DNA of 64,000 bases from assembly GCA_020723405.1 (NCBI GenBank), contig DYIY01000009.1:110427-174426 (forward strand), in the 5' to 3' direction. The notes under the pieces are model-generated. The model had not been told where the DNA came from, made no database searches, and saw only the letters and a program-made list of their open reading frames with translations. Shown here one piece after another: positions 27,303 through 43,538 of this stretch. Positions within the stretch are counted from its first letter, which is position 1. Each line of letters begins with the position of its first letter. The stretch is from Thiobacillus denitrificans. Lineage in GTDB: Bacteria; Pseudomonadota; Gammaproteobacteria; Burkholderiales; Thiobacillaceae. A program made the translations under genes and the position numbers.

Positions 27303-27433
27303 GGGGGAATTCCGTGGTGGTGGTCGGGCATGGGGTAAGGGCGTTGAAGGGGCGGTAATCGCCGGCAAGTGGGGGTTTCATGGCGTTCTCCTTGGGGTGA
27401 AAGTGCCCGCCCCGGTGGGGGCGGGCGGTTGGG

Positions 27434-27628
27434 TCAGTCGATCTCGAATTCGGCTTTGTCACCGTTCAACAAACCGGCGAGGCATTGCCGGGTGCGCTGG
27501 CGCATCTGCTGGCGGATGGCCTTGCCCGTCTTGCCATGGGCACCGGCGCGACGGGTCAGGGCAGCCACCACCAGCGGATTGCGAGGCGTGCTGGGGGGCA
27601 CCAGGGTGGGGGTCTTCTTGCGCGGCAT
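27434..27628 (-). CDS. Small basic protein (64 aa) translationally coupled to rtcB1
   Basis: ATG 4 nt after the rtcB1 stop, with AAGGGG 7 nt upstream. MPRKKTPTLVPPSTPRNPLVVAALTRRAGAHGKTGKAIRQQMRQRTRQ..., with no known family. Confidence 0.4.
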   Translation of the reverse strand: MPRKKTPTLVPPSTPRNPLVVAALTRRAGAHGKTGKAIRQQMRQRTRQCLAGLLNGDKAEFEID

Positions 27629-27631
27629 GGC

Positions 27632-28840: not shown

Positions 28841-29194
28841 GATGATTCCAAAACGGTTGCGGCAAGGCCGCGGTTGTTGGAATCCGGGAGGGGAGGCGAG
28901 GCAGGAAAATGCATCGCCAAAAACAAAAACCCCCGGCTCATGGCCAGGGGTTCTCTGCTACCCGGCCCGGATTCGCCTTGCGCGAAATCCGGGCAACGTC
29001 ATGCCGGCGGACTTAGCGCGTTGTTTCCTTCAAGTTGTCAGCTGGCATGGGGTTCTCCTTGCAAAATGGGTTGAAAAAATCAGGGGGCGGATTCTGGTGA
29101 TCGGCCTTGGGGCTGTCAATGGGTTTGCCCAAGCGCGATGGCCTCGCGCCCGGAGAAGGGTTGAGTGTGTGGCGCGGAAGACACATTGTTGGAT

Positions 29195-30784
29195 TCAGCC
29201 CGCCTTCACCGCCTCAAAGTTCAACGCAAAACGCGCCAGGTATTTGCGCAGCCGATCTGCATCATTGGCCGACTTCTTGCCCTGGCGGGAAACGGCATAG
29301 AGCTGCCGACCCGCTTCCGACAAGGTGCCACAGCGGCGGCAGGTCTCGATGACGAAGGCCAGTTGGTGGCGATCAAAGAGGTCCAGTTCGTCGGCCTGGT
29401 CACCCAGCAGTTCCGCCACCGGGTCGGGCAGGGGGGTAGCCCTCCAGGTGCGGCGCAGGCGGTCGATCTCTTCGGCCACGTTGGCTTCGTTGATGCGCCC
29501 GGCGGTGCTCAGGGTGGCCATGCGCGTCACCGAGGCGCCCAGCTCGCGGAAATTGCCCCGCCATTGGGCCTGGTGGCTGGCGGCGAAGGCCAGGTAACGG
29601 CGCCGGGCCTCCAGGTTGAAGCGCACCTGCTGGCCCTGTTCCCGGGCGTGGCGTTCCAGTTCGAAATCCAGGTTGGGTTCAATGTCCTCCGGCCGCTGGG
29701 CCAGGCCCGGCAGATCGAAGGTCCACAGGTTGATGCGGGCGAACAGGTCTTCCCGGAAACGGCCTTCCGCCACCCATAGGCGCAGATCCCGGTGGGTGCC
29801 GGCGATGAGCTGGAATTCGCTGTCCACTTCCCGGTCGGCGCCAAAGGGGAAGAAGCGCTTCTCCTCGATGGCCTTGAGCAGCATGGCCTGTTCGTCCAGG
29901 CCCAGCTCGCCGATTTCATCCAGGAACAGCAGGCCCCCGTGGGCGGCCCGCAGCAGCCCGGGCCGTTCGGTCTGGGCGCCGGTGAAGGCGCCCTTCACGT
30001 GACCGAACAGGGTGGACATGGCCGAGTCGCCGCGCAGGGTGGCGCAGTTCACCTCGATGAAGCGGCCGGCCAGCCGTTGCCGCTGGCGCTTCAGTTCGTA
30101 CACCCGGCGGGCCAGGAAGGATTTGCCGGCGCCGGTGGGCCCCACCAGCAGCATGGGGGCCCGGGAGCGCCCGGCCACCTGTTCGATGCGCTCGATCATG
30201 CGGTTGAAGGCCGGGTTGCGGGTGGCGATGCCGGATTTCAGCAGGGACACGTTGTCCGTGTGTTCCCGGGCGAAGCGTTGGGCGATCTTGTCGTAGCGGG
30301 ACAGGTCCAGGTCGATGATCTCGTAGCTGCCGATGCTGTTTGCGATCTCTTTCTTGCGCGGCGGCGAAGTCTGCACCAGCCGGGCTGGCAGGGTGCGGGC
30401 TTCGGCCAGGAGGAACCAGCAGATCTGCGCCACGTGGGTGCCGGTGGTGATGTGGATCAGGTAGTCCTCGTGTTCCGGGTCGAAGGGGTAGGCCTGGGCG
30501 AAATCCAGCAGGCTGGTGTAGACCTCCTGGAAGTCCCAGGGGTCGCGCAGCTCCCGTTCCACCCGATTCACCTGGGTCTCCGGGGACACCGCGCCGATGT
30601 CCAGACGGACCCGTTCGGCCAGGCCCCGGCTGCGGGCGTCATGCATCAGCTCCAGGCGATGGACCACCAGGTTCTCCTGCTGACAGAGAGCCACGCTGGG
30701 CCGCCACTTGTCCCAACGGCCCGCGCCTTTGCCGCCGTAGTCCAGCTGGGTGCCGAGGAAGCCGAAAACCACGGTGCGCTTCAT
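29195..30784 (-). CDS. rtcR: Sigma54-dependent transcriptional regulator RtcR (CARF-domain enhancer-binding protein)
   Basis: 529 aa, collinear with E. coli RtcR. The CARF-like N-terminus is MKRTVVFGFLGTQLDYGG...WRPSVALCQQE. AAA+ Walker A GPTGAGKS and GAFTGA motif HVKGAFTGA are present. C-terminus is ...NDADRLRKYLARF. Confidence 0.93.
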   Translation of the reverse strand: MKRTVVFGFLGTQLDYGGKGAGRWDKWRPSVALCQQENLVVHRLELMHDARSRGLAERVRLDIGAVSPETQVNRVERELRDPWDFQEVYTSLLDFAQAYPFDPEHEDYLIHITTGTHVAQICWFLLAEARTLPARLVQTSPPRKKEIANSIGSYEIIDLDLSRYDKIAQRFAREHTDNVSLLKSGIATRNPAFNRMIERIEQVAGRSRAPMLLVGPTGAGKSFLARRVYELKRQRQRLAGRFIEVNCATLRGDSAMSTLFGHVKGAFTGAQTERPGLLRAAHGGLLFLDEIGELGLDEQAMLLKAIEEKRFFPFGADREVDSEFQLIAGTHRDLRLWVAEGRFREDLFARINLWTFDLPGLAQRPEDIEPNLDFELERHAREQGQQVRFNLEARRRYLAFAASHQAQWRGNFRELGASVTRMATLSTAGRINEANVAEEIDRLRRTWRATPLPDPVAELLGDQADELDLFDRHQLAFVIETCRRCGTLSEAGRQLYAVSRQGKKSANDADRLRKYLARFALNFEAVKAG

Positions 30785-30790
30785 GGGCGC

Positions 30791-30841
30791 TTATCCAAAT
30801 AGATAAATGACGAGTGCAAATTCTACGGATGTTGGAATTTG
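30791..30841. promoter_or_regulatory. Candidate RtcR upstream activating sequences (inverted repeats)
   Basis: TTATC-N6-GATAA (30791-30806) and CAAATTC-N11-GAATTTG (30817-30841), in an atypically AT-rich divergent region between rtcR and the sigma54 promoter. Confidence 0.35.
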
Positions 30842-30883
30842 TCAGGGCATGTTTTTTACCGGCAAGAGAAATTAATAATGTTT

Positions 30884-30896
30884 AATCAATGCGTTA
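30884..30896 (+). promoter_or_regulatory. Candidate IHF site (AATCAATGCGTTA; WATCAANNNNTTR)
   Basis: Matches the IHF core. Located between the candidate UAS and the sigma54 -24 element, the usual geometry for EBP-dependent promoters. Confidence 0.4.
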
Positions 30897-30924
30897 GAGA
30901 TTTGTTGCCGGCTGCCGCCCGGGT

Positions 30925-30941
30925 TGGCACGGTCCTCGCAA
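30925..30941 (+). promoter_or_regulatory. Sigma54 promoter -24/-12 (TGGCACG-GTCC-TCGCA)
   Basis: GG-N10-GC spacing is exact, with a strong match to TGGCACG-N4-TTGCW. Divergent from rtcR. Predicted TSS about 30951. Confidence 0.75.
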
Positions 30942-31059
30942 TACCTGTCCCGATCGCTGAATTGCTGCAATGGCCCACGGGCCGGGGTTTCCAGGCCCCG
31001 CCGGTGCGGTGGGACCGGGCTCAGGCCCGTCGTCGTGCCGTATGCCGCCGCAAGGAGGA

Positions 31060-31210
31060 GGCGGTTGTTGCGAGCCTGGGTGGCTCGCCGGGTTCGATTC
31101 CCGGCTCGCAAGCCTTGGATAGCTCAGAGGGTAGAGCAACCGTGCAAACGGTGTGTCGCGGGTTCGACTCCCGCTCCAAACCTGTCCTGATAAGACAGAT
31201 CGTGTCATTG
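31060..31210 (+). ncRNA. Tandem tRNA-like elements in the 5' leader (candidate Y-RNA/YrlA-like tRNA mimic)
   Basis: Module 1 (31068-31109): acceptor-like GCGAG/CTCGC stacked on T-arm CCGGG-TTCGATT-CCCGG (a minihelix). Module 2 (31113-31181): 5-bp acceptor (TTGGA/TCCAA), D-arm GCTC-AGAGGGTA-GAGC, anticodon arm replaced by ACCGT-GCAA-ACGGT (GNRA-capped stem), and T-arm GCGGG-TTCGACT-CCCGC. A CTGTC-CUGAUAA-GACAG hairpin follows (31184-31200). Confidence 0.5.
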
Positions 31211-31426
31211 CAGTACCCGCCGGTTGCGGCATGCGCAAGCACCCGCCACCGGTTCCGCCGGTTCCCGGTCCGCAAGGACGGCAAGGAACGGGCGGGCCGG
31301 GCACCCCGCCCTCCGGCCCCCGGGTCGGGCGGAGGGTGAACCGGCCCCCCGAACCTCCCCGCCCCTGTCGCCCGAAGGGCTCGTGGGACCGGTGCCCGCC
31401 GGCCACTTCAGAAAAAGGAACAAGTC

Positions 31427-32575
31427 ATGTTGAAGCGTTTTGTGGTGAAGAAGAACGAACGGGGCGCCCTGCTGAAGGACGGCGACTTCGAGCGCATCCT
31501 GGATGCCGGCCGCCACTATTTCTGGGACCCCTTGAACCACCTGTCCCTGGTGGTGTGGAAGCTGGACGCGCCCATGGATGACCGGGACGTGGTGGATTAC
31601 CTGGTCCGCCACGATCCCCAGACGGCCGACGCCTGCTTCGAAAAAATGGAACTGGGCGAGGACGAGGCCGGCCTGCGCTATGAGAACGACGTGCTGGTGG
31701 AGGTGCTGCCCCCGGGAACCCGGCGTTATCACTGGAAAGGCGTGATCGTCCATCGCCTGGATAAAGTGGACCTGCGCCAGGGGTACGGCGTGGCGCCGGA
31801 ACTGGCCGCCCGTCTGCTCCAGCCGGCCTTGCACGGACGGGCCGTGGCGGGCCTGGCCGGCTTGCTGATCGCCCAGGTGCCCGCCTACCACGTGGGCGTG
31901 CTCAAGGTGGATGGCCGGGTGGAGCGGCTCCTGGGACCGGGCGTGGAAGCCTTCTGGCGGTTCAACCGGGATGTCCAGGTGGAGCTGGTGGATACCCGCC
32001 TGCAGAACATGGAAGTCACCGGCCAGGAAATCCTCTCCCGGGACAAGGTGAGCCTGCGTCTGAACCTGGCGGCCACCTGGCGTTACAGCGACGTGGAGCG
32101 GGCCCACGGCCAACTGGTGAAACCGGCGGAACACCTGTACCGGGAACTCCAGTTCGGCCTGCGCGCCGCGGTAGGCACTCGCGACCTGGATGCGCTGCTG
32201 GAAAACAAGCAGGTCATCGACGAGGTGGTGGGTCAGCACGTGCGCAGCAAGCTGGCCGGCTTCGGCATGGAAGTGGGTAGCGTGGGCGTGAAGGACATCA
32301 TCCTGCCCGGCGAGATGAAGACCATCCTGGCCCAGGTGGTGGAAGCGGAGAAGTCCGCCCAGGCCAACGTCATCCGCCGCCGGGAGGAAACGGCCGCCAC
32401 CCGTTCCCTGCTCAACACCGCCAAGGTGATGGAGGACAACCCCGTCGCCCTGCGCCTGAAGGAACTGGAAACCCTGGAAAGGGTGGCTGAACGCATCGAC
32501 CGCATCTCCGTGTTCGGCGGCCTGGACCAGGTGTTGAGCGGGTTGGTGAATCTGCGTTCGCCGTCCTCGGGTTAG
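31427..32575 (+). CDS. SPFH/band-7 (stomatin/prohibitin-like) domain protein, cytoplasmic, no TM segment
   Basis: 382 aa with the SPFH core GVKDIILPGEMKTILAQVVEAEKSAQANVIRRREETAATRSLLNTAKVMEDNPVALRLKELETL. AAGGAA RBS present. Confidence 0.85.
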   Translation: MLKRFVVKKNERGALLKDGDFERILDAGRHYFWDPLNHLSLVVWKLDAPMDDRDVVDYLVRHDPQTADACFEKMELGEDEAGLRYENDVLVEVLPPGTRRYHWKGVIVHRLDKVDLRQGYGVAPELAARLLQPALHGRAVAGLAGLLIAQVPAYHVGVLKVDGRVERLLGPGVEAFWRFNRDVQVELVDTRLQNMEVTGQEILSRDKVSLRLNLAATWRYSDVERAHGQLVKPAEHLYRELQFGLRAAVGTRDLDALLENKQVIDEVVGQHVRSKLAGFGMEVGSVGVKDIILPGEMKTILAQVVEAEKSAQANVIRRREETAATRSLLNTAKVMEDNPVALRLKELETLERVAERIDRISVFGGLDQVLSGLVNLRSPSSG

Positions 32576-32577
32576 TC

Positions 32578-33063
32578 ATGCACGCCTGCCCCGCCGGGGC
32601 AGGCGTGGGGGAGAATGAAGTGAAGACATACAAGAGCGGAAAACAGCGTCGCGCTGAAATCAAGGCCGCACGGCTGAGCAAGCAGCATCGCGCATCCCAC
32701 CGGGTTGATGGCTTCAGGGTCCGACCCGAGGGAACCGAGCCGGTGAACCCGGCACGACTGCGCCCCAACAACAGCTACGGCGTACCCGACTTCGTCTGGC
32801 GCGGGTACTACAAGGACATGGCGTTCCGTTGCGTGGATTGTGGCGTCGAGCAGGTCTGGACCGCCCAGCGCCAGCGCTGGTGGTATGAAGTGGCCCAGGG
32901 AGACGTATACAGCACGGCTCGCCGTTGCGCCCCCTGCAGGCTCAAGGAGCGCCAGCGGAAGGAGGATGCACGCCGTGCCTGGAGGGAAGGCCTGGAAAGA
33001 AAGGCGGCGCGGCAGTTACGACCAGGGTGGGCAGGAATGGCCCCCAAGAACTTGGATAGGTGA
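32578..33063 (+). CDS. Zinc-ribbon (2x CxxC) basic protein
   Basis: FRCVDCGVEQVW...ARRCAPCRLKERQRK, Arg/Lys-rich. Alternative GTG start at 32620 lies just after the hairpin and RBS. The stop is 4 nt before rtcB2. Confidence 0.5.
   Translation: MHACPAGAGVGENEVKTYKSGKQRRAEIKAARLSKQHRASHRVDGFRVRPEGTEPVNPARLRPNNSYGVPDFVWRGYYKDMAFRCVDCGVEQVWTAQRQRWWYEVAQGDVYSTARRCAPCRLKERQRKEDARRAWREGLERKAARQLRPGWAGMAPKNLDR
32581..32607 (+). other. Perfect 12-bp GC-rich hairpin (CACGCCTGCCCC-GCC-GGGGCAGGCGTG) between the SPFH and zinc-ribbon genes
   Basis: Directly observed. There is no U-tract, so it is not a canonical terminator. It abuts a GGGGGAG RBS. Confidence 0.6.
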
Positions 33064-33067
33064 AAAG

Positions 33068-34285
33068 ATGGAACATCAGATTCTCGAAGTCGAAAACGGC
33101 AAGCCCATCAAGCTGTGGACCCAAGGCGTCCCGGTGGAGGACGCTGCCCGCCAGCAACTGATCAACACCGCCCGCATGCCCTTCATCTTCCGCCACCTGG
33201 CGGTGATGCCCGACGTGCACCTGGGCAAGGGTTCCACCATCGGCAGCGTCATCCCCACCCAGGGGGCCATCATCCCCGCCGCCGTCGGCGTGGACATCGG
33301 CTGCGGCATGATGGCCGCCCGGACCACCCTGAGCGCCACGGATTTGCCGGACAACCTGCACGGCCTGCGTACAGCCATCGAAAAGGCCGTGCCCCACGGC
33401 CGCACGGTGGGCCGCGGCAAGCGTGATGCCGGAAGCTGGGAAAACCCGCCCGAGAAGGTGGACGACATGTGGGCCGCCCTGTTGCCCGGCTTCGAGCGCA
33501 TCGTGGCCAAGTACCCGCGCCTGAAGAACACCAACCAGTACAAGCACCTGGGTACCCTGGGCACCGGCAACCACTTCATCGAAGTCTGCCTGGACGAGGC
33601 CGACCGGGTCTGGTTCATGCTGCACACCGGTTCCCGCGGCGTGGGCAACGCCATCGGCAGCCTGTTCATCGAACTGGCCCAAGCCGACATGCGCGGCCAC
33701 CTGGCCAACCTGCCGGACAAGGATCTCGCCTATTTCGAGGAAGGCAGCCCCCACTTCGACGACTACGTGGAAGCCGTGGGCTGGGCCCAGGATTTTGCCC
33801 GCCGCAACCGGGCAGTGATGATGGACCACGTCATCGCCGCCGCCCGCAGCATCATCGACAAGCCCTTCAGCGCCGACGTGGAAGCGGTGAACTGTCACCA
33901 CAACTACGTCCAGCGGGAGACCCACTTCGGCGCCGAAGTACTGGTGACGCGCAAGGGCGCCGTGTCGGCGAAGAAGGGCGAACTGGGCATCATCCCCGGC
34001 TCCATGGGCGCCAGGAGCTACATCGTGCGCGGCCTGGGCAACGAGGAAGCGTTTTGCTCATGCAGCCACGGCGCCGGTCGCACCATGAGCCGCAACGAAG
34101 CCAAACGCCGCTTCACGGTGGAAGACCAGATCCGCGCCACGGAAGGCGTGGAATGCCGCAAGGACAAGGAAGTCATCGACGAGATCCCCATGGCCTACAA
34201 GGACATCGACGCGGTGATGCACGCCCAGCGGGAGCTGGTGGAAGTGGTGCATACCTTGCGGCAGGTGGTGTGTGTGAAAGGGTGA
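33068..34285 (+). CDS. rtcB: RNA-splicing ligase RtcB (E. coli-type paralog 2)
   Basis: 405 aa, near-collinear with E. coli RtcB. MEHQILEVENGKPIKLWTQGVPVEDAARQQLINTARMPFIFRHLAVMPDVHLGKGSTIGSVIPT... and ends ...YTLRQVVCVKG. Confidence 0.96.
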   Translation: MEHQILEVENGKPIKLWTQGVPVEDAARQQLINTARMPFIFRHLAVMPDVHLGKGSTIGSVIPTQGAIIPAAVGVDIGCGMMAARTTLSATDLPDNLHGLRTAIEKAVPHGRTVGRGKRDAGSWENPPEKVDDMWAALLPGFERIVAKYPRLKNTNQYKHLGTLGTGNHFIEVCLDEADRVWFMLHTGSRGVGNAIGSLFIELAQADMRGHLANLPDKDLAYFEEGSPHFDDYVEAVGWAQDFARRNRAVMMDHVIAAARSIIDKPFSADVEAVNCHHNYVQRETHFGAEVLVTRKGAVSAKKGELGIIPGSMGARSYIVRGLGNEEAFCSCSHGAGRTMSRNEAKRRFTVEDQIRATEGVECRKDKEVIDEIPMAYKDIDAVMHAQRELVEVVHTLRQVVCVKG

Positions 34286-34372
34286 GGGGGGATTGACGAC
34301 CGGGATCCAGGCATCCGCCGGTGCAGAGAACCGGTCGATCCATGCCCCACGTACGAATAGAAAGACAAGGAA

Positions 34373-35407
34373 ATGATTGAAATCGATGGCGCCGCCGGGG
34401 AAGGCGGCGGCCAGATTCTGCGCACCGCCCTGACCCTGGCCATGATCACCGGCCAGGCCATCCGTATGGTGGCTATCCGTGCCCGACGGCCCAAGCCCGG
34501 TTTGCTGCGACAACACCTGACTGCGGTGGAGGCGGCGACGGCCATTTGCCGTGCCCGGGTGGAGGGGGCCGCGGTGGGCAGCCAGACCCTGGAGTTTCAT
34601 CCGGGCCCAATCCGTGGTGGCGACTATCGCTTCGCCATCGGCACCGCGGGCAGTTGCACCCTGGTGTTGCAGACCGTGTTGCCCGCCCTGTGGTTTGCCG
34701 ACGGCCCCAGCACCTTTGCGGTGAGCGGCGGCACCCACAATCCGGCCGCCCCACCGGCCGACTTTCTGCGGCGGTCCTGGCTGCCCGTGGTGGCGGCCAT
34801 GGGCGTGGACATGGAACTGGAGCTGCTGCGCCATGGTTTCTACCCCGCTGGAGGGGGCGAGATGTTGGCCCGGGTGCGCCCCGCGTCCCCCCTGACGCCC
34901 TGGCAGGCGCCCGCCCGGGCGCCTGCCGGCAAACCCCGCGCCGTCGCCGTGGTGGCGGGCGTCCCGGTGGATGTGGCGCGGCGGGAACTGGCCCGGCTCC
35001 AGCAGCACCTGGGTGACATGGAAACCGAGGTCCGCGTCCTGTCTTCCCGGGAAGGCCCCGGCAACGCGCTGCTGGTGGAAATTCCCTTGTCCGCCCACGG
35101 CGAAGTGTTCACTGGCCTTGGCGAACGGGGCCTGCCCGCCGAGACCGTGGCCGACCGGCTGGCCCGTACGGTGCGGGGCTTCCTGGACAGCGACGCCAGC
35201 GTGGGCGAGCACCTGGCCGACCAGTTGCTCCTGCCCCTGGCTTTGGCGGGGGGCGTTGGTTTCACGGCACCGGTGTTGTCGTCCCACGCCCGCACCAATA
35301 TGGCGGTGATCCAGCGCTTTTTGCCTGTGGAATTTGCGGTGGAAGAAAGGGAGGGCGTTGTGAAGGTGGGCGTGGTGCGACACGCGTTAACCGTGGCGGG
35401 GCCGTAA
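34373..35407 (+). CDS. rtcA: RNA 3'-terminal phosphate cyclase RtcA
   Basis: 344 aa. MIEIDGAAGEGGGQILRTALTLAMITGQ...LLRQHLTAVEAATAIC...DYRFAIGTAGSCTLVLQTVLPALWFA matches RtcA including the active-site His region. Confidence 0.95.
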   Translation: MIEIDGAAGEGGGQILRTALTLAMITGQAIRMVAIRARRPKPGLLRQHLTAVEAATAICRARVEGAAVGSQTLEFHPGPIRGGDYRFAIGTAGSCTLVLQTVLPALWFADGPSTFAVSGGTHNPAAPPADFLRRSWLPVVAAMGVDMELELLRHGFYPAGGGEMLARVRPASPLTPWQAPARAPAGKPRAVAVVAGVPVDVARRELARLQQHLGDMETEVRVLSSREGPGNALLVEIPLSAHGEVFTGLGERGLPAETVADRLARTVRGFLDSDASVGEHLADQLLLPLALAGGVGFTAPVLSSHARTNMAVIQRFLPVEFAVEEREGVVKVGVVRHALTVAGP

Positions 35408-35716
35408 TGTTCCGGTTACCTGCTACCCAACTGAGAATTGCGTTGAAGGGTTGGTACCGACTCGAAAGAGACATAAACCGGCAAGAAGCCTGGACGGCAT
35501 GTTTCTGATTGGAGCCGCCGTTCAGAGCGGTGACTGAATGCGAACTTGTCGGCCGGAGCGGACGTTCGTGTTGGATGCGGTTACAGTGTGCAATGAACCA
35601 GTTGCTGACTCTCGCCACCCTGGAAGGCTACTCCCGTTGTCGGCAGTAAGCTGCCAACTACTTACAAATTTTCCGTAGTTGTACGGCCTACACCACCTGG
35701 CCTGTATATTCTCGGC

Positions 35717-37678
35717 ATGCCCCGCATTGCTTACTACGAAGCCAACATTCAGGATTTTTTGGTTGCTGATGAAGATGCAATTCTCGGCGCGTTGTCTATG
35801 CAACATGGCTTTGCCTTGGAACACCTGCAAAAGCATGCGTGGCAGGGCCAGATTCGGATTCTGCGCAGCATTCTTTCTCCCACCCAGTTGGGCTGGATCT
35901 ACTTCGAGTTTTCGATTCCCAGGATGGGCAAAAGGGCCGATGTTGTTTTACTGACAGGCGGCGTGGTGTTCGTCATTGAGTTCAAAGTCGGTTCGCACAG
36001 CTTTGATAGCTACGCGGTTGAACAGGCGCATGACTACGCGCTTGATCTCAAGAACTTTCACCGAGGCAGTCACAATCTCCCAATTGTTCCGATTCTGATT
36101 CCTACAGCAGCGCCGCTTCAGCCAGTACCGGCGATAAAATGGGCTGCCGACCAGGTCGCCGAACCGCTGTGCCTTTCTGCCGCAAACTTGCCTGAAGCGA
36201 TTGAGATGGCAGAAAAACAATGGTCGGCAGAACCTATTGATGCCATTGCCTGGTCGCAATCGGGCTATCAACCTACCCCCACCATCGTCGAAGCCGCTCT
36301 GGCTTTGTATCGACAGCACGATGTCAAAGAAATTACCCGATCAGAAGCAGGCGCAGACAACCTTGGTCTGACAGCAAGGCGCGTTGAGCAGATCATTGAG
36401 CATGCCAAGTCAAACAGCCGTAAAGCCATCTGCTTTATTACTGGCGTACCAGGCGCAGGAAAGACGCTAGCAGGCCTAAACATCGCGACATCGCGTGCCG
36501 AGAGACACTCTGACGAGCACGCGGTTTTCCTGTCCGGCAATGGGCCACTGGTCGATGTCCTCCGGGAGGCACTTGCTCGGGACAAGGCCGAGCGGGAGGA
36601 TATCCCGCGAACACGTGCGTACCGGGAAGTCTCAACCTTCGTGCAAAACATCCATCATTTCCGGGATGAGGCTCTCGAAAGCAGGAACCCACCGATCGAG
36701 AAGGTGGTGATATTCGATGAGGCCCAGCGGGCCTGGAACCGCGACATGGCGAGCAAGTTCATGCAGCAAAAGCGCGGGCATGCCACCTTCAATATGTCTG
36801 AGCCGGCTTTTCTCCTTGACGCGATGAACCGCCACAGAGACTGGTGTGTGGTGGTCTGTCTAATTGGCGGTGGCCAAGAGATCAATACGGGTGAGGCTGG
36901 CCTAGCCGAATGGATAACTGTGTTGCGCGACCAGCATCCAGACTGGGACGTTCATGTTTCAAGCCGTCTGGACGACCGTGATTACATCTGGGACAAAGAA
37001 CTGTCCATGGAGTTGTCGAAGGGTTCGGCACAATGGGATGAATCCCTGCACCTCGGGGTATCAATCAGGTCGTTCCGCGCGGAGGCCTTGTCTGAATTCG
37101 TTGGGCATGTGGTGGACAACAGGCCTGATCAGGCATGCGTGACCTACCAGGCGATAGCGGACAAGTACCCGATCATTCTGACGCGCAGTTTGGCGGAGGC
37201 CCGTTCTTGGCTGCAGGCCAAGTCTCGCGGCAGTGAGCGTTATGGCCTTACAGCCTCATCTGGAGCAAATCGTCTGCGACCAGATGGTATCTGGATCAAG
37301 TCAAAGATAGATGCCCCTGTATGGTTTTTGAATGATAAGACGGATGTCCGTTCGTCGTACTACCTCGAAGAAACTGCGAGTGAATTCGACATCCAGGGAC
37401 TTGAGCTTGACTGGGCCTGCGTTGGTTGGGATGCCGACTTTCGTCGCGGTGATGATGAGTGGCAATACTTCAGTTTTCGAGGCACAAAGTGGCAGCGAAT
37501 GAATTCGCCAGATCGCCAGCTTTATCTCAAGAACGCCTATCGGGTACTGCTGACCCGCGCTCGTCAAGGCATGGCGATCTTTGTTCCACCTGGCGACCCT
37601 TCCGATCCGACAAGAGCGCCGCAGGTCTATGACCGTATCTATGAGTATCTCCAGCTTTGTGGAATTTCCAGTAGTTGA
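35717..37678 (+). CDS. DUF2075-type protein: N-terminal PD-(D/E)xK-like nuclease plus SF1-helicase/Schlafen-like P-loop ATPase
   Basis: 653 aa. N-terminal GKRADVVLLTGGVVFVIEFK (D...ExK nuclease-like motif), central Walker A ITGVPGAGKT, Walker B-like VVIFDEAQ, and C-terminal RVLLTRARQGMAIFVP. GC content (about 50-52%) is clearly lower than the surroundings. Confidence 0.7.
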   Translation: MPRIAYYEANIQDFLVADEDAILGALSMQHGFALEHLQKHAWQGQIRILRSILSPTQLGWIYFEFSIPRMGKRADVVLLTGGVVFVIEFKVGSHSFDSYAVEQAHDYALDLKNFHRGSHNLPIVPILIPTAAPLQPVPAIKWAADQVAEPLCLSAANLPEAIEMAEKQWSAEPIDAIAWSQSGYQPTPTIVEAALALYRQHDVKEITRSEAGADNLGLTARRVEQIIEHAKSNSRKAICFITGVPGAGKTLAGLNIATSRAERHSDEHAVFLSGNGPLVDVLREALARDKAEREDIPRTRAYREVSTFVQNIHHFRDEALESRNPPIEKVVIFDEAQRAWNRDMASKFMQQKRGHATFNMSEPAFLLDAMNRHRDWCVVVCLIGGGQEINTGEAGLAEWITVLRDQHPDWDVHVSSRLDDRDYIWDKELSMELSKGSAQWDESLHLGVSIRSFRAEALSEFVGHVVDNRPDQACVTYQAIADKYPIILTRSLAEARSWLQAKSRGSERYGLTASSGANRLRPDGIWIKSKIDAPVWFLNDKTDVRSSYYLEETASEFDIQGLELDWACVGWDADFRRGDDEWQYFSFRGTKWQRMNSPDRQLYLKNAYRVLLTRARQGMAIFVPPGDPSDPTRAPQVYDRIYEYLQLCGISSS

Positions 37679-37896
37679 AAGCCTTTGAGGCCCCAGGGGA
37701 TCGTCCGCATTACATCGGTTGCTGACGCACATCGCCCTACCTTGTGGGGCAGCTACGAGGCGTTAGCGGTCATCCAGTCGGCCTGAACTGATCGGCCGCT
37801 CAGGCCGAGTAGTGTGAATTGACCTTCCGGCAGCTTCCGAAGTAAAGCGGCAGTTCAAGCGCCTGCCTTCCCGGAGCATCGAATGGCCGCAACTGA

Positions 37897-38076
37897 CCGA
37901 CTGCCGCAGTTCGATCTGGTGACCGAAAGCCGCCGGTGGACGATGTGCCGGTGAGGTGCCACGCAAACAGCCCGGTGGATTGGCCGTATTCCTCGTTTCA
38001 CCGTTTCGTCGCCGCCGGCATCCTGCCAGCGGATTGGGGCGCGGAAGGAAATACGGCGCGGGGTTTTGGCAAGTGA
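37897..38076 (+). pseudogene. Remnant of REP-associated tyrosine transposase (RAYT/IS200-like) C-terminus
   Basis: A 59-codon ORF fragment, bounded upstream by an in-frame TGA, encoding ...CHANSPVDWPYSSFHRFVAAGILPADWG, which resembles the conserved NPV...DWP(W/Y)SS tail of COG1943 transposases. A nested hairpin lies immediately downstream. Confidence 0.3.
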
Positions 38077-38079
38077 AGG

Positions 38080-38162
38080 CGTAGGTTGGGCTGAGGCACG
38101 AAGCCCAACAAGAGGGTGGCGCCGCCGGGCCGTTGGGCTTCCTGGCGTCAGCCCAACCTACG
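38080..38162. repeat. Nested imperfect hairpin (REP-like): outer 15-bp arms CGTAGGTTGGGCTGA/TCAGCCCAACCTACG, inner GAAGCCCAAC/GTTGGGCTTC
   Basis: Directly observed inverted repeats, upstream of the SDR gene and adjacent to the RAYT remnant. Confidence 0.6.
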
Positions 38163-38245
38163 GGGTTGACCATGGGCCGGCCGCGTGGCCGCCGCCATCC
38201 GCCGGGCGTTAACATGGGGCCACACGCATCCCTACGCAAACCCTC

Positions 38246-38935
38246 ATGACCGCCAAAACCATATTCCTCACCGGCGCCACCCGGGGCCTGGGCCGGGCCC
38301 TTACCGCCGAATTCGTCGCCCGGGGCCACAAGGTGGCGGGCTGCGGCCGCAATGCCGCCGCCATCGCCGAACTTCAGGCCGCCCATGGGCCCGGGCACGA
38401 TTTCGCCGTGCTGGACGTGGCCGATGACGCCGCCGTGGGCGCCTGGGCCCGGCGGGTGCTGGCGCGCTTCGGGCCGCCGGATCTGCTGCTCAACAATGCC
38501 GCCGTCATCAACCGCAACGCGCCGCTTTGGCAGGTGCCGGCGGCCGAGTTCGACGCCCTGGTGGACATCAACATCAAGGGGGTGGCCAACGTGATCCGCC
38601 ACGTCCTGCCCGCCATGGTGGCCCGCAGGAAGGGCGTGGTGGTGAATTTCAGCTCCGGCTGGGGCCGGGGCACCGACCCGGAAGTGGCCCCCTACTGCGC
38701 CAGCAAGTGGGCCATGGAGGGCCTGACCAAGGCCCTGGCCCAGGAGCTGCCCAAGGGCATGGCCGCCGTGCCCCTGTCGCCGGGCATCATCGACACGGAC
38801 ATGTTGCGTTCCTGCTTCGGTTGCGGCGCCCGGGATTACCCGGGCCCGGAGGAATGGGCCCGCACCGCCGCCCCCTACCTGCTGGACCTGGGGCCGGAAG
38901 ACAACGGCCGCTCCCTCACCGTGGGCGACCGTTGA
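38246..38935 (+). CDS. SDR-family oxidoreductase
   Basis: TGATRGLGRAL (TGxxxGxG), NNAA, and a catalytic YCASK (YxxxK) motif. Confidence 0.9.
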   Translation: MTAKTIFLTGATRGLGRALTAEFVARGHKVAGCGRNAAAIAELQAAHGPGHDFAVLDVADDAAVGAWARRVLARFGPPDLLLNNAAVINRNAPLWQVPAAEFDALVDINIKGVANVIRHVLPAMVARRKGVVVNFSSGWGRGTDPEVAPYCASKWAMEGLTKALAQELPKGMAAVPLSPGIIDTDMLRSCFGCGARDYPGPEEWARTAAPYLLDLGPEDNGRSLTVGDR

Positions 38936-38938
38936 TCC

Positions 38939-39490
38939 ATGCGCGTGCATCTGCTCCGCCATGGCGAGAGCGAGGCCAACGTGGGTGGCTTCATCAATGA
39001 CGATCCGGCCCGGCCGGTACACCTTACCGAGCGGGGCCGGGCCCAGGCCCGCGCGGCGGCGGAAGCCCTGGCGGGGACGGCCTTCGATCGGGTCTTCTGT
39101 TCCCGTTTTCCCCGCGCCCGGGAGACGGCGGAAGTCCTGATGGCGGGGTTGGGCCTGGACCTGCCCCTGCAGGTGGACGCCCGCCTGGACGAGCGGCGCT
39201 CGGGCCTGGACGGGCAACCGGTGGAGGCCTTCAACGGCCTGGTGCGGCCGGACCCGGTGCGCATCCGGCCGCCGGCCGGGGAGTCGTTCCTGGAGACCAT
39301 GGACCGCGTGAAGGGGTTTATGGACGAAGTGGTTGCTCACTTTCCAGAGGCCCGGGTGTTGCTGGTGAGCCATGAGAACCCCATCCAGGCGGTGTTGGCC
39401 TGGACCATGGCGCCGGAGCAGGCGGTGATTCTGCCGGTGGAGAATTGCGGGTGGCGGGTGGTGGAATGGCCGGGTGAATGTGGCCGATAG
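38939..39490 (+). CDS. Histidine phosphatase family protein (phosphoglycerate mutase-like)
   Basis: N-terminal LLRHGESEAN (RHG motif) and C-terminal ...LVSHENPIQ. Confidence 0.85.
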   Translation: MRVHLLRHGESEANVGGFINDDPARPVHLTERGRAQARAAAEALAGTAFDRVFCSRFPRARETAEVLMAGLGLDLPLQVDARLDERRSGLDGQPVEAFNGLVRPDPVRIRPPAGESFLETMDRVKGFMDEVVAHFPEARVLLVSHENPIQAVLAWTMAPEQAVILPVENCGWRVVEWPGECGR

Positions 39491-39520
39491 GGGGCGGGGG
39501 GCGGTAGGGAGGGGGCATCG

Positions 39521-39614
39521 AAATCCCCCCTAGCCCCCCTTTAAGAAAGGGGGGAACCCCCGGGCGTCATCTGGTGCTTTCCCCCCTTTCTTAAAGGGGG
39601 GTAGGGGGGGATTT
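39521..39614. repeat. REP/MITE-like element, locus A: two inverted copies of a 36-nt unit AAATCCCCCCTAGCCCCCCTTTAAGAAAGGGGGGAA
   Basis: Unit at 39521-39556 and its inverted copy at 39578-39614. Lies between convergent genes. Confidence 0.8.
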
Positions 39615-39656
39615 GCTACGGCCGGCATACCCACCCACCCCCAGCAAAGTCAGTAC

Positions 39657-39917
39657 TCACTCCCGTCGCATATGGCTCACCTTCAGCCCCAGCACCGTCC
39701 CCGCCAGCACCAGGGTGACGCCGTTGGCGAGGATCACCGGCCAGCTTTCCAGGAACAAGCCGTAGACCAGCCAGAGGGCCACCCCCAGGGTGAACAGGCT
39801 GTACATGCCCAAAGAGATGCCGGACAGGTCCCGGCTGGTCCAGGACTTGAGGGCCTGGGGGACGAAGGCGGCGGTGGTGAGGGCGGCGGCGGAGTAGCCG
39901 ATGAGGTCGGGGATCAT
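39657..39917 (-). CDS. SemiSWEET (PQ-loop) sugar transporter
   Basis: 86 aa with 3 TM segments and PQ motif FVPQALKSW. The ORF track extends it to 39983. Confidence 0.75.
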   Translation of the reverse strand: MIPDLIGYSAAALTTAAFVPQALKSWTSRDLSGISLGMYSLFTLGVALWLVYGLFLESWPVILANGVTLVLAGTVLGLKVSHMRRE

Positions 39918-39985
39918 GGGGGTATCGGTGATGGGGGTTAGGCGGGACAATTCGCGCCTTGAAGGATAAGCCCTGACGTCCACCC

Positions 39986-41602
39986 ATGTTGCGCATCACC
40001 GAAGTCAAACTCCCCCTGGACCACCCGGAAGCCGCCCTCAAGGCCGCCATCCTGGATCGCCTGGGCATCCCGGAACACGAGCTGATCCGCTACCAGATCC
40101 ACCGTCGCGGCTACGACGCCCGCAAGCGCAGCCAGATCAGCCTGGTCTATACCCTGGACGTGGAACTGACCCGGGAAGCTGCCGTGCTCAAGCGGCGCAA
40201 GGACGACAAGCACCTGGGCCCGACCCCGGACATGACCTACCGCTTCGTGGCCCGGGCGCCGGAAGGCATGAAGCACCGGCCGGTGGTGGTGGGGGCCGGT
40301 CCCTGCGGCCTGCTGGCCACCCTGATCCTGGCCCAGTCGGGCTTCCGACCCCTGCTCCTGGAACGGGGCAAGGCGGTGCGGGAACGCACCAAGGACACCT
40401 GGGGCCTGTGGCGCAAGGGGGTGCTGAACCCGGAATCCAACGTCCAGTTCGGCGAAGGCGGGGCGGGGACCTTCTCCGACGGCAAGCTCTACAGCCAGAT
40501 CAAGGATCCCCACCACCACGGCCGCAAGGTGCTGGAGGAGTTCGTGAAGGCCGGGGCGCCGGAGGAGATCCTCTATGTCAGCAAACCCCACATCGGCACC
40601 TTCAAGCTGGTGACCATGGTGGAGCACATGCGCGCCACCATCCAGGATCTGGGGGGTGAGATCCGCTTCGAGAGCCGGGTGACGGACCTGGACATCGCCG
40701 ACGGCCAGGTGCGGGGCCTGACCCTGGCCGACGGGGAGCGCATCGAAGCCGACCACGTGATCCTGGCCCTGGGCCACAGTGCCCGGGACACCTTCGCCAT
40801 GCTCCACGCCCGGGGCGTGCACATCGACCCCAAGCCCTTCTCCGTGGGCTTCCGCATCGAGCATCCCCAGTCCCTCATCGACCGCTGCCGCTTCGGCGAC
40901 ACCGCCGGCCATCCCCTGCTGGGGGCCGCCGATTACAAGCTGGTGCACCACGCCAGCACCGGCCGCACCGCCTACAGCTTCTGCATGTGCCCGGGGGGCA
41001 CGGTGGTGGCCGCCACCTCGGAGGAAGGCCGGGTGGTCACCAACGGCATGAGCCAGTATTCCCGCAACGAACGCAACGCCAACGCCGCCATCGTGGTGGA
41101 CGTGAATCCGGCGGATTTCCCCGGTGACGTGGCAGCCAACCCCCTGGCCGGCATGGAATTCCAGCGCCTGTGGGAATCCCGGGCCTTCGAAGCCGGCGGC
41201 GGCACCTATGCAGCCCCGGCCCAGAAGGTGGGGGACTTCCTGGCCGGCCGGCCCTCCACCGGCCCCGGGGCGGTGATTCCCTCCTACACCCCCGGGGTCC
41301 ACTGGACCGACCTGTCCGGCTGCCTGCCCGACTACGTCATCGCCACCATCCGCGAAGCCATCCCCGCCTTTGACCGGCAGATCCGCGGCTTCGCCATGGC
41401 GGATGCGGTGTTGACCGGGGTGGAGACCCGCACCTCGTCGCCCATCCGCATCACCCGGGGGGAGGATTTCCAGAGCCTCAACGTGCGGGGCCTGTATCCG
41501 GCCGGGGAGGGTGCGGGCTATGCCGGCGGCATCCTGTCGGCGGCGGTGGACGGGATCAAGGTGGCCGAGGCGGTGGCCTTGAGTGTGGCGGGTGGGGAAT
41601 AG
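39986..41602 (+). CDS. NAD(P)/FAD-dependent oxidoreductase (COG2509-type)
   Basis: 538 aa. Rossmann VVVGAGPCGLLATLILA; C-terminal FAD-dependent domain. Confidence 0.8.
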   Translation: MLRITEVKLPLDHPEAALKAAILDRLGIPEHELIRYQIHRRGYDARKRSQISLVYTLDVELTREAAVLKRRKDDKHLGPTPDMTYRFVARAPEGMKHRPVVVGAGPCGLLATLILAQSGFRPLLLERGKAVRERTKDTWGLWRKGVLNPESNVQFGEGGAGTFSDGKLYSQIKDPHHHGRKVLEEFVKAGAPEEILYVSKPHIGTFKLVTMVEHMRATIQDLGGEIRFESRVTDLDIADGQVRGLTLADGERIEADHVILALGHSARDTFAMLHARGVHIDPKPFSVGFRIEHPQSLIDRCRFGDTAGHPLLGAADYKLVHHASTGRTAYSFCMCPGGTVVAATSEEGRVVTNGMSQYSRNERNANAAIVVDVNPADFPGDVAANPLAGMEFQRLWESRAFEAGGGTYAAPAQKVGDFLAGRPSTGPGAVIPSYTPGVHWTDLSGCLPDYVIATIREAIPAFDRQIRGFAMADAVLTGVETRTSSPIRITRGEDFQSLNVRGLYPAGEGAGYAGGILSAAVDGIKVAEAVALSVAGGE

Positions 41603-41630
41603 GAAAGGTGGAGGGGTGGGCCGCCGGCTG

Positions 41631-41737
41631 GAATCCCCCCCAGCCCCCCTTTACGAAAGGGGGGAGAAGATTGTGGATCCCCTCGCCATTCCGCGAGCTG
41701 TTCCCCCCTTTCGTAAAGGGGGGCCAGGGGGGATTTG
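41631..41737. repeat. REP/MITE-like element, locus B (same family; inverted unit pair)
   Basis: GAATCCCCCCCAGCCCCCCTTTACGAAAGGGGGGAG at 41631-41666 and its inverted copy at 41701-41737. Confidence 0.8.
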
Positions 41738-41762
41738 AACCCCTCTCCCAATCCACACCCCC

Positions 41763-42974
41763 ATGACTCCCCACCTCATCCTCATCGGCGGCGGCCCCGC
41801 CGGCCTCATGGCCGCCGAAACCCTGCTGGCCGGCGGCGTCCAGGTGGACCTCTACGACCGCATGCCGTCCCTGGGGCGCAAGTTCCTCCTGGCCGGCCGG
41901 GGTGGCCTGAACCTGACCCATTCCGAACCCCTGCCCGATTTCCTGACCCGTTATGGCGCGCGACAGGCGGAGCTGGAACCCCTGATCGCCGCCTTCGGCC
42001 CGGCCGAACTGCGGGCCTGGGCCGTCGACCTGGGGGTGGAAACCTTCATCGGCAGCTCCGGCCGGGTGTTTCCCAAAGAGATGAAGGCGGCGCCCCTGCT
42101 GCGGGCCTGGCTGCACCGCCTGCGTCAGGCGGGGTTGCGCATCCACGCCGGGCAGCGCTGGCTGGGCTGGCAAGACAATGACCTGCTGTTCAGGGGGCCG
42201 GAAGGGAAACGGACCGTCCGGGCCGACGCGGTGATCCTGGCCCTGGGCGGGGGAAGCTGGTCGAAATTCGGCTCCGACGGGGCCTGGGTGCCCCTGCTAT
42301 CCCAGCGGGGGGTGGCGGTGGCGCCCCTGAAGCCTGCCAACTGCGGTTTCGACGTGGGCTGGAGCGAGCATTTCCGCCAGCGTTTCGCCGGCCAGCCGGT
42401 GAAGCCGGTGGTGGCCGAGTGGGCGGGCACCCGTCGCCAGGGGGAATTCGTCGTCACCGAAACCGGGGTGGAAGGCAGCCTGATCTACGCCTTCTCGGCC
42501 CCCCTGCGCGAGGCCATCACGGAACAGGGGGCCGCCGTCCTCCACCTGGACCTGATGCCGGACTGGCCTCTGGAACGCCTGCTGGGGGAAATCGCCCGGC
42601 CCCGGGGCGCCCGTTCCCTGTCCAGCCACCTGCAAAGCCGGCTGGGCCTGAAGGGGGTGAAGACCGGCCTGCTGCGGGAAGTGCTGGGCGCCGAGGCCCT
42701 GGCCGACCCGGCCCGCCTGGCCGCCGCCATCAAGGCACTGCCCCTGGTCATCCGGGCGCCCCGCCCCCTGGAGGAAGCCATCAGCAGCGCCGGCGGGGTG
42801 GACTTCGCCGGCCTGGATGAGCGGCTCATGATCCAAGCCCTGCCCGGGGTGTTCTGCGCCGGGGAGATGCTGGATTGGGAAGCCCCCACCGGGGGCTACC
42901 TGCTCACCGCCTGTTTCGCCAGCGGCAAGGCGGCGGGGCAGGGCGCCCTGGCCTGGCTGAAGGAGAAGGGCTGA
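41763..42974 (+). CDS. HI0933/BaiN-like flavoprotein (NAD(P)/FAD-dependent oxidoreductase)
   Basis: 403 aa. [15 protein letters not shown]; family-typical C-terminal ...[18 protein letters not shown]. Confidence 0.85.
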
Positions 42975-43420
42975 TGCACATCTGGGTGGACGCCGATGCC
43001 ACGCCGGCCGTGGTGAAAGACATCCTGTTCCGGGCTGCGGAGCGCAAGAAGATCCCCATGACCCTGGTGGCCAACCGCCTGCTGCGGGTGCCGCCCTCGC
43101 CCTACATCACTGCCCTGCAGGTGCCCCAGGGCTTCGACGTGGCGGACAACGAAATCGCCCGCCGGGTGCAAGCGGGGGACCTGGTCATCACCGCCGACAT
43201 CCCCCTGGCCGCCCAGGTCATCGAGGCCGGCGGCCACGCCCTGAATCCCCGGGGGGAGTTCTACAGCCAGGAGAACATCCGGGAAGCCCTGAACCTGCGG
43301 GATTTCATGACCGGCCTGCGCGACGCGGGCCTCAACAGTTCCGGCCCGCCGGCCTTTTCCCAGGCGGACCGGCAGGCCTTCGCCAACCAGTTGGACCGCT
43401 TCCTGGCGAAACTGGGCTGA
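42974..43420 (+). CDS. YaiI/DUF188 (UPF0178) family protein
   Basis: 148 aa, [24 protein letters not shown]... The ATG overlaps the upstream stop (TGATG). Confidence 0.75.
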
Positions 43421-43424
43421 GCGG

Positions 43425-43526
43425 GATTCCCCCCTTTGAAAAAGGGGGGCTAGGGGGGATTTGACGACGCTGGCCTTAGCGAGCCGGCCAAAATCCCCCT
43501 CGATCCCCCTTTACGAAAGGGGGAAG
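43425..43526. repeat. REP/MITE-like element, locus C (same family; unit order reversed and second unit degenerate)
   Basis: Inverted unit at 43425-43463 and a forward degenerate unit (5 C instead of 6) at 43491-43526. Confidence 0.75.
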
Positions 43527-43538
43527 TACGACGGGAGC

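Follow-up and report, generated by a model that had tools for sequence, protein, structure and literature searches.

The product of the gene that lies 3' of rtcA in this Thiobacillus denitrificans genome is probably a defence enzyme of the Nhi-like / PDC-S41 type, a single polypeptide directed against phages (or mobile DNA). The gene is carried on a horizontally transferred cassette and appears to stand beside the rtc operon by position only. We give this reading a probability of about 0.75. The full-length match to PDC-S41, the invariant motifs and the proxy homology to a verified Nhi-like protein together point to anti-phage defence.

The open reading frame (35717-37678, plus strand) is located in the window, the 64,000-nucleotide stretch of DNA analysed here. 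It starts with ATG and encodes a protein of 653 residues. A gap of 309 bp separates the start codon from the end of rtcA, confirming an earlier note, made from the letters alone, that had placed a 653-residue gene on the 3' side of rtcA. On the other side, adh_short is followed by a His_Phos_1 gene on the plus strand (gene call, 38939-39490). No further credible reading frame is found within the island. A minus-strand frame of 536 codons (37763-39373) was rejected as a shadow ORF, having no Pfam match and overlapping two plus-strand genes that do match Pfam.

Sequence and structure model support a protein in which a DUF2075 (PF09848) helicase of SF1 type is fused to an N-terminal nuclease of the PD-(D/E)xK fold. 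This architecture had been proposed from the motifs D...IEFK, GVPGAGKT and DEAQ, and all three are present (D75 and E88-F-K90, residues 243-250, and residues 334-337, respectively). The predicted catalytic core maps to strands beta2 and beta3 of the modelled nuclease fold, and its counterpart in the Bacillus Nhi-like homologue reads RRPD ... VIECK. Residues E64, D75, E88 and K90, the Walker A motif, DEAQ and TRARQG show no variation in an alignment of 70 homologues of 64-94% identity, the set across which invariance was scored. The same alignment reveals an invariant motif in the linker region, formed by W179 and G183-Y-x-P-T-P188. Close to the C-terminus, we read VLLTRARQG as motif VI by comparison with the known motifs of SF1 helicases. 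Model quality in the helicase region is only moderate (pLDDT 50-70), and the best Foldseek matches of this region, human SLFN11, Upf1, MrfA and SLFN14, have low TM-scores.

Residues 1-235 give zero Pfam matches even at E<=10. A profile of the nuclease domain, which is thus without a Pfam family, recovers 3,373 clusters at 50% identity. No NCBIfam model matches the protein, and searches of the PDB by sequence, using phmmer with the full protein and hmmsearch with the N-domain profile, returned nothing useful. In PHROGs, a weak match to the Zot P-loop is the only one observed. The features of the locus are collected in Table 1.

Table 1. Features of the nuclease-helicase locus, in window coordinates.
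Feature	Position	Strand	Description	Basis
rtcA	34373..35407	+	left core flank, last gene of the rtc operon	Pfam RTC, E=4e-81
Strain-specific segment	35380..38224		bounded by core genes, rtcA on the left and adh_short on the right	
Transferred cassette	35590..37755	+	gene flanked by 127 bp on its 5' side and 77 bp on its 3' side	Azonexus comparison
GTATATT, conserved -10-like motif	35704..35710	+	ends 6 nt before the ATG	
PD-(D/E)xK (restriction-endonuclease-fold) nuclease domain	35717..36256	+	N-terminal, aa 1-180	
Predicted catalytic core D75 ... E88-x-K90	35939..35986	+	RADVV ... VIEFK	invariant in 70 homologues
Linker	36257..36421	+	aa 181-235; low to moderate pLDDT	
DUF2075 / Schlafen group-3-type SF1 helicase	36422..37588	+	aa 236-624	Pfam PF09848, E=4.5e-78
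Walker A	36443..36466	+	GVPGAGKT, aa 243-250	invariant
Walker B / motif II	36716..36727	+	DEAQ, aa 334-337	D334, E335, Q337 invariant
SF1 motif VI-like	37544..37570	+	VLLTRARQG, aa 610-618	T613, R614, A615, R616, Q617, G618 invariant
Nested inverted repeat (hairpin)	38080..38162		spacer downstream of the cassette	
adh_short (SDR)	38246..38935	+	right core flank	gene call and Pfam

The candidate defence gene of the earlier note finds its family in PADLOC, where the protein matches PDC-S41 with E=1.5e-287, residues 5-651 aligning with positions 4-651 of the 657-position profile. Nhi-like is system SG141 of Bacillus cereus FSL H8-0482, experimentally verified against phages, and members from Rhodocyclaceae appear in the family table of the same study (Millman et al. 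2022). The only printed part of the verified sequence being its N-terminal 95 residues, our comparison runs through a proxy, a B. cereus plasmid homologue (L095:5881-7713) whose first 95 residues are 94.7% identical to that fragment. This homologue is 28% identical to the nuclease-helicase over 610 residues (BLASTP, E=3e-64) and is also recognised as PDC-S41 (E=1.6e-115). The PDC-S41 match and the proxy homology thus make the protein more than a candidate, placing it in the family of the verified Nhi-like protein. Judged by its sequence, it is an ordinary further member of a known, already described defence family. Furthermore, PADLOC's unvalidated PDC-S41 candidate is now tied to a verified system; a literature search found no paper text naming PDC-S41.

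The homologues stand alone, partner-less and with differing neighbours in every context examined. The same enzyme might mainly exclude plasmids or other mobile elements, or be a selfish, addiction-like gene. The solitary and highly mobile nature of the cassette is compatible with such a role, as are the presence of family members on Bacillus megaplasmids and Persicobacter plasmids and the lack of any relative in a scan of viral contigs. Against it stand the verified activity of the Bacillus member against phages and the lack of a toxin-antitoxin-like partner gene, and we regard this role as unlikely, although it is the most credible of the alternatives to anti-phage defence.

The gene is marked by a deviating base composition. 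The interval 35408-37740 has a GC content of 54.35%, compared with a window mean of 65.3% (z = -4.2 versus the rest of the window), and is the lowest among all windows of 2,333 bp. The low-GC island described earlier is therefore a real trough in a non-uniform profile, but its GC content is about 54% and not about 50%, and only its upstream flank is GC-poor (53.7% in 35408-35716, versus 64.2% in the downstream spacer 37679-38245). The GC3 of the reading frame is 0.587, against 0.82-0.91 in rtcR, the SPFH gene, rtcB, rtcA and the FAD gene. The family gene is also poorer in GC than its flanking DNA in all seven host contexts compared (7/7).

The nuclease-helicase gene arrived by horizontal transfer on a cassette roughly 2.2 kb long and occupies a variable slot between rtcA and adh_short. 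This is established by the lack of the gene in a 99%-identical strain and by a 90%-identical cassette in an unrelated Azonexus locus; together with the low GC content, these comparisons bear out the horizontal origin suggested in the earlier note. The strain is the conspecific relative GCA_040752475.1 (L177/L182), which is 99.1% identical at the nucleotide level across 7.7 kb of flanking DNA. Its alignment with the window breaks at 35344 and resumes at 38225, with 98% nucleotide identity in rtcA up to the break and 98.1% in 38225-43411. The nuclease-helicase is absent from this strain, but the site is not empty: about 26.7 kb of other genes lie between the same rtcA and adh_short. The 3' end of rtcA in the window matches a relative of 81% identity (L179) up to 35379, which shows that the window retains the ancestral end and that the altered one belongs to L177. 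The edges of the strain-specific segment are located within 35380-35590 on the left and at 38224/38225 on the right.

The cassette itself aligns with a locus in an Azonexus metagenome-assembled genome (L083) at 89.8% nucleotide identity over 2,167 bp, and the neighbouring genes at that locus are unrelated. Elsewhere, homologues are found next to PemK, TacA, NERD-UvrD, AAA_11/12-MTES and Bro-N genes. These observations bear on a housekeeping role, in which the protein would be a nuclease-helicase of DNA repair or recombination, comparable to Dna2, AddAB or NucS, with no part in immunity. The gene is no conserved core gene, being missing from the 99.1% relative; its composition is foreign in each of the seven hosts; its neighbourhoods are unrelated in every genome examined, often with toxin-antitoxin or defence-like genes; and its family includes an experimentally verified defence protein. 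We consider a housekeeping role very improbable.

An integrase, att-like direct repeats and a tRNA gene were sought at the island edges, and nothing convincing was found. An imperfect 24-nt repeat (35326-35349 / 37658-37681, 79%) was rejected as an island boundary, as it is probably due to chance. The insertion could in principle be an old one and its gene an inactive relic, and the lack of these three marks of insertion is in line with this, as are the GC-poor stretch of approximately 180 bp (35408-35589) and the 470-bp spacer (37756-38224) that flank the cassette. The reading frame, however, is intact over its full length, every catalytic motif is conserved, and homologues in other genera share 93-94% protein identity. 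A relic is the least probable of the readings considered here.

The slot is a natural allelic hotspot, in which a 2.2-kb single-gene defence cassette and a 26.7-kb island alternate between strains that are 98-99% identical on both sides. The alternative cargo of GCA_040752475.1 includes PIN and YoeB RNase toxins, and a 78%-similar copy of the hairpin in the window's spacer is observed within that island. PADLOC recognises one weak PDC-S62 match in this cargo and nothing else, and the label of defence hotspot was dropped for this reason.

Upstream of the gene, GTATATT is kept in 7 of 10 homologous loci, while the rest of the upstream DNA is unrelated. No Shine-Dalgarno sequence precedes the ATG. 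The motif is possibly the cassette's own promoter, which would give a leaderless mRNA. A scan of 35300-38300 for sigma-70 consensus sites and terminators found sites no more numerous than in shuffled sequence and did not flag GTATATT. Since no terminator is predicted between rtcA and the nuclease-helicase, some read-through from the rtc promoter is conceivable.

The juxtaposition with the rtc operon had been considered potentially functional, and this part of the earlier note is not supported. Among 80 rtcA loci in other species, not one contains a DUF2075 homologue within 10 kb of rtcA. Likewise, no rtcA, rtcB, rtcR or SPFH gene occurs near the family member in any of the 92 loci compared. 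The two closest relatives, of 99% and 81% identity, carry other genes 3' of rtcA and no nuclease-helicase there. The adjacency therefore looks like an accident of the landing site. As a conflict effector coupled to Rtc, the nuclease would damage tRNA or rRNA, with RtcB and RtcA repairing or buffering the damage, or RtcR would co-induce the two. In addition to the two counts, this is opposed by the intact rtc operon that the 99%-identical strain maintains without the nuclease-helicase, and by the conserved upstream motif that the cassette appears to bring with it. The protein has V at position 83 and lacks the Ex4ExK motif of Schlafen RNases (PMC13056530), and the characterised Nhi, of the same architecture, acts on DNA. 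We judge such coupling highly unlikely.

Scarcely more credible is the proposal that conflict genes whose products interact with RNA repair land preferentially in the 3' flank of rtcA in this lineage, where the conspecific strain carries the PIN and YoeB toxins, the nuclease-helicase being read through from the RtcR/sigma-54 promoter. If this were true, a DNA-targeting defence would be induced along with the rtc operon when infection damages RNA. In a stronger version, the PD-(D/E)xK domain of this clade may cut RNA, with Rtc buffering the self-damage. The locus serves as a worked negative example: a defence gene beside an rtc operon does not amount to functional coupling in the absence of evidence from conservation.

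The preferred reading, a DNA-targeting defence enzyme, suggests the following mechanism. The N-terminal PD-(D/E)xK nuclease would be metal-dependent, and the C-terminal DUF2075 domain would act as an SF1 helicase/ATPase. By homology, the ATP-driven helicase is expected to load onto invading DNA and to translocate along it or unwind it, thereby licensing or delivering the nuclease, which would nick or cleave this DNA and block phage replication. The cue that separates self from non-self may be a foreign DNA modification, as in type IV restriction, or a feature of phage replication, as for Nhi. Either cue is suggested by the lack of a partner methyltransferase and by the Bacillus member, from which phages escape through loss of a phage DNA methylase (bioRxiv 2022.08.27.505566). 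Phage resistance in this family is verified for the B. cereus member only, which is about 28% identical to the protein described here.

Several known systems invite comparison. The ATP-dependent or modification-dependent PD-(D/E)xK restriction nucleases McrBC/McrC and HsdR, as well as the nuclease-helicase defences Upx, Hna and Shedu, have no sequence homology to the nuclease-helicase. The motor here is an SF1 DUF2075 helicase on a single polypeptide, in contrast to the GTPase/AAA+ or SF2 motors of that group. Human Schlafen proteins of group 3 (SLFN11, SLFN5, SLFN13 and SLFN14) share the PF09848 helicase, and SLFN11 and SLFN14 are among its best Foldseek matches. In bacteria, a pSlfn defence protein has by definition a Schlafen core RNase domain with the Ex4ExK motif (PMC13056530). 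The N-terminus of our protein is instead a classical PD-(D/E)xK domain by prediction, with no Pfam match to AlbA_2/SLFN-core. In agreement with residue 83, the helicase domain alone is in common, and the protein falls outside the Schlafen nucleases.

Nhi (SERP2475) from Staphylococcus epidermidis has the same single-gene layout of PD-(D/E)xK nuclease and DUF2075 SF1 helicase (Bari et al. 2022), and nicks and unwinds phage DNA (bioRxiv 776245; PMC12904381). Outside the P-loop it has no meaningful sequence similarity to our protein: the PADLOC Nhi model matches residues 227-352, the P-loop region, only (E=2e-4, 18 bits), which places the protein outside Nhi sensu stricto. The triggers may also differ, being phage SSB variants for Nhi (PMC12904381) and a phage DNA methylase for Nhi-like (bioRxiv 2022.08.27.505566).

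The closest likeness is with Nhi-like (SG141), grouped as a nuclease-NTPase system of PD-(D/E)xK nuclease and SF1 helicase (bioRxiv 2025.07.10.664194). It has the same single-gene, two-domain build, with the E...D...ExK motif and DUF2075, and the PDC-S41 model covers both our protein and the Bacillus plasmid homologue over their full length. The two differ in sequence (about 28% identity), in host (Betaproteobacteria here, Bacillota there) and in setting, a chromosomal slot here and a megaplasmid there. With PDC-S41 tied to Nhi-like, PDC-S41 calls in Proteobacteria can be read as Nhi-like.

The 653-aa ORF that, as stated in the earlier note, lies directly 3' of rtcA belongs to a defence family already known, of which one member has been verified; this new member sits in a variable chromosomal slot (Table). 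Its proposal as a candidate anti-phage gene agrees with a PADLOC search, in which the PDC-S41 profile spans the protein over its full length (E=1.5e-287). Matches to the PADLOC Nhi and AbiO profiles are confined to the P-loop. A literature search found no mention of the name PDC-S41 in paper texts. The N-terminal residues of SG141, the verified Nhi-like protein from B. cereus FSL H8-0482, are printed in the supplement to Millman et al. 2022, whose family table lists members from Rhodocyclaceae and from many phyla. Searching plasmids with tblastn gave 44 homologues on Bacillus cereus-group megaplasmids, with ~28% identity over aa 38-632. One of these, encoded at L095, is 94.7% identical to the printed fragment over 95 aa. 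Its alignment to the window protein extends for 610 aa (28% identity, E=3e-64) and keeps the nuclease motif, and it too matches PDC-S41 (E=1.6e-115). Together with the family table, these matches identify PDC-S41 by sequence with the Nhi-like family and place the window protein in it, through the plasmid homologue as proxy. The family is large, with at least 8,000 candidates from homology search. A profile of the N-domain only recovers 3,373 clusters at 50% identity, 722 of them at E<=1e-30. In ~135 of the 150 best matches (~15 exceptions), the N-domain begins within the first ~25 residues. Apparently full-length proteins measure ~645-830 aa.

Pfam PF09848 (SLFN-g3_helicase, formerly DUF2075) covers aa 236-624 (E=4.5e-78). 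The Walker A motif GVPGAGKT (aa 243-250), DEAQ (aa 334-337), GGGQE (aa 384-388) and TRARQG (aa 613-618) are invariant in 70 homologues with 64-94% identity to the window protein. The top Foldseek matches of the full-length structure model, of which the helicase part is the weaker portion, are SLFN11, Upf1, MrfA and SLFN14, with low TM-scores. The domain profile, the motifs and the structural matches thus show that the initial reading as a DUF2075 nuclease-helicase was correct.

The deviant base composition described in the earlier note is confirmed. The interval 35408-37740 has 54.35% GC versus 65.3% for the whole window, the minimum among all 2,333-bp windows (z = -4.2), and GC3 of the ORF is 0.587 versus 0.82-0.91 for rtcR, SPFH, rtcB, rtcA and the FAD gene. 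Low GC had also been assigned to both flanks; this holds for the upstream spacer 35408-35716 (53.7%) but not for the downstream spacer 37679-38245 (64.2%). Pfam and gene calls give the order rtcR (-), tRNA-like element, SPFH, zf_Tbcl, rtcB, rtcA, Nhi-like gene, adh_short, His_Phos_1, PQ-loop (-) and FAD-dependent protein. A 536-aa reading frame on the opposite strand was rejected as a high-GC shadow ORF, with no family match and overlapping real genes.

Feature coordinates (window positions unless prefixed by L, which marks comparison loci; L177 and L182 belong to GCA_040752475.1, L179 to the 81% relative)
Feature	Location	Strand	Remark
Second RtcB paralogue	~27632-28840	-	upstream of rtcR
Sigma-54-type -24/-12 element	30925-30940	+	TGGCAC-N5-TCGCA
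tRNA-like element	31112-31183	+	between rtcR and SPFH/rtcB
tRNA-like element copies	L004:6770-6843, L005:6334-6408, L009:4512-4586, L013:6188-6261, L021:7260-7329, L025:8541-8613, L038:6799-6869, L177:4500-4571, L179:7092-7164
rtcA	34373-35407		309 bp upstream of Nhi-like ORF
24-nt direct repeat	35326-35349 / 37658-37681		3' ends of rtcA and Nhi-like ORF
Cassette	35590-37755		compared with Azonexus locus
Nhi-like ORF	35717-37678	+	653 aa
Shadow ORF	37763-39373	-	rejected
Nested inverted repeat	38080-38162		spacer, cassette to adh_short
Inverted repeat copy	L182:7771-7848		within relative's island
adh_short	38246-38935	+	real gene under shadow ORF
His_Phos_1	38939-39490	+	real gene under shadow ORF
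HEAT-repeat and RlaP genes	L177:7677-9952		between relative's rtcB and rtcA
Alternative slot cargo	L177:11071-21032 + L182:1-9975		26.7-kb cargo: PIN-domain gene pair; DUF2170, PspA; 1,745-aa DUF3686/DUF7902 AAA ATPase; DUF5691 / AAA_5 (MoxR-like) / DUF5682 / VWA cluster; YefM-YoeB, DUF7336
CBM96/PEP-CTERM gene	L182:15165-16101		~120 bp in window (43412-43532)
19-tRNA-gene array	L036:13679-19430		Burkholderiales MAG
Plasmid Nhi-like homologue	L095:5881-7713		Bacillus cereus

Among species representatives, none is close to the host; the best RtcA match (67% identity) is in a Rhodocyclaceae MAG. The conspecific MAG GCA_040752475.1 shares 99.1% identity with window 26613-34283 and, from 38225 onwards, 98-99.6%. 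In the window, rtcA and adh_short are 2.8 kb apart with the Nhi-like gene as the sole gene between them; in the MAG they lie ~26.7 kb apart on one contig. The 99% relative thus lacks the gene, and its slot is filled with other cargo. In the 81% relative, LysR, RsmB and PLD genes follow rtcA. Since the cargo differs in all three, the slot is a site of variable accessory genes. Because the alternative cargo is almost entirely missed by PADLOC (one weak PDC-S62 match), we withhold the label of proven defence hotspot. The 3' end of the window rtcA agrees with that of the 81% relative, which makes the window version the ancestral one.

In the spacer downstream of the cassette, an inverted repeat whose 18-nt arms are 94% complementary has inner 13-nt arms nested within it; a 78%-similar copy lies in the relative's island, and the window has no further copies. 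Another indel between the two genomes involves a 229-aa CBM96/PEP-CTERM gene.

Horizontal acquisition, also put forward earlier, is borne out by the differing content of the rtcA-adh_short slot and by the cassette itself, which has 89.8% nucleotide identity to an Azonexus locus with unrelated neighbours. In 7/7 host contexts, GC content is lower in the gene than in the DNA on either side. Among the matches listed, the closest protein relatives (93-94% identity) come from Ferrovum, Azonexus and other betaproteobacterial MAGs. The sequence GTATATT, 6 nt upstream of the ATG, is kept in 7/10 loci whose upstream DNA is unrelated in other respects, and no Shine-Dalgarno sequence precedes the window ATG, hinting at a cassette-borne promoter and a leaderless mRNA. 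No integrase, att repeats or tRNA gene was found flanking the insertion. A 24-nt imperfect direct repeat (79%), whose first copy spans position 35344, where homology to the 99% relative stops, is probably due to chance.

The functional link to RNA repair suggested in the earlier note is not supported in either direction. No DUF2075 homologue occurs within 10 kb in 80 rtcA loci from other species, and rtcA, rtcB, rtcR and SPFH are all missing from each of the 92 loci that encode a family member, 55 of which have flanks of at least 5 kb. In five well-resolved contexts, the family members are solo genes beside PemK, TacA, NERD-UvrD, AAA_11/12-MTES_1575, Bro-N or HTH/M78 genes. As no terminator is predicted between rtcA and the Nhi-like gene, transcription may read through from one into the other.

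The leader of the rtc operon contains a tRNA-like element (Rfam tRNA, 40.6 bits) to which ARAGORN assigns an abnormal 2-nt 'anticodon'. Ten or more rtc loci, mostly Rhodocyclales-type, have it at this position. The D- and T-arms are common to all copies, the anticodon stem shows compensatory changes, and the anticodon loop varies in length. The element is reminiscent of the tRNA-like Y RNAs of the Salmonella rsr-yrlBA-rtcBA operon, although the Ro gene is absent from the window locus. It may serve RtcR/RtcB as a decoy or sensor substrate. A sigma-54-type element, read from the sequence ahead of both the tRNA-like element and the SPFH gene, fits RtcR-dependent transcription that would place the tRNA-like RNA in the operon leader.

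Between strains whose flanking rtc genes are 98-99% identical, operon content differs: HEAT-repeat (476 aa) and RlaP (270 aa) genes of the relative are absent from the window (34285 to 34373). An interval of 1-2.3 kb also separates rtcB from rtcA in several further rtc loci, among them L003, L006 and L007. The divergent second RtcB has ~58% aa identity to the operon RtcB and is followed by 64-aa and 319-aa genes. In a Burkholderiales MAG, a tRNA-gene array lies 2.7-8.4 kb downstream of rtcA.

The Ex4ExK motif of Schlafen RNases is missing from the window protein, which is therefore not a bacterial Schlafen as the 2026 papers use the term (PMC13056530). With Nhi it shares the architecture, but the sequences are unrelated except for the P-loop. 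Nhi combines bipolar helicase activity with nuclease activity, nicking and unwinding phage DNA (bioRxiv 776245, PMC12904381), and its activity hinges on phage SSB variants (PMC12904381). Phages escape Nhi-like through loss of a phage DNA methylase (bioRxiv 2022.08.27.505566), suggesting that methylated phage DNA sensitises them. A 2025 preprint places Nhi-like among the PD-(D/E)xK + SF1 helicase 'nuclease-NTPase' systems (bioRxiv 2025.07.10.664194). By analogy with these systems, we propose that the window protein would cleave invading DNA by helicase-coupled action, for which a DNA modification or a replication intermediate could be the non-self signal.
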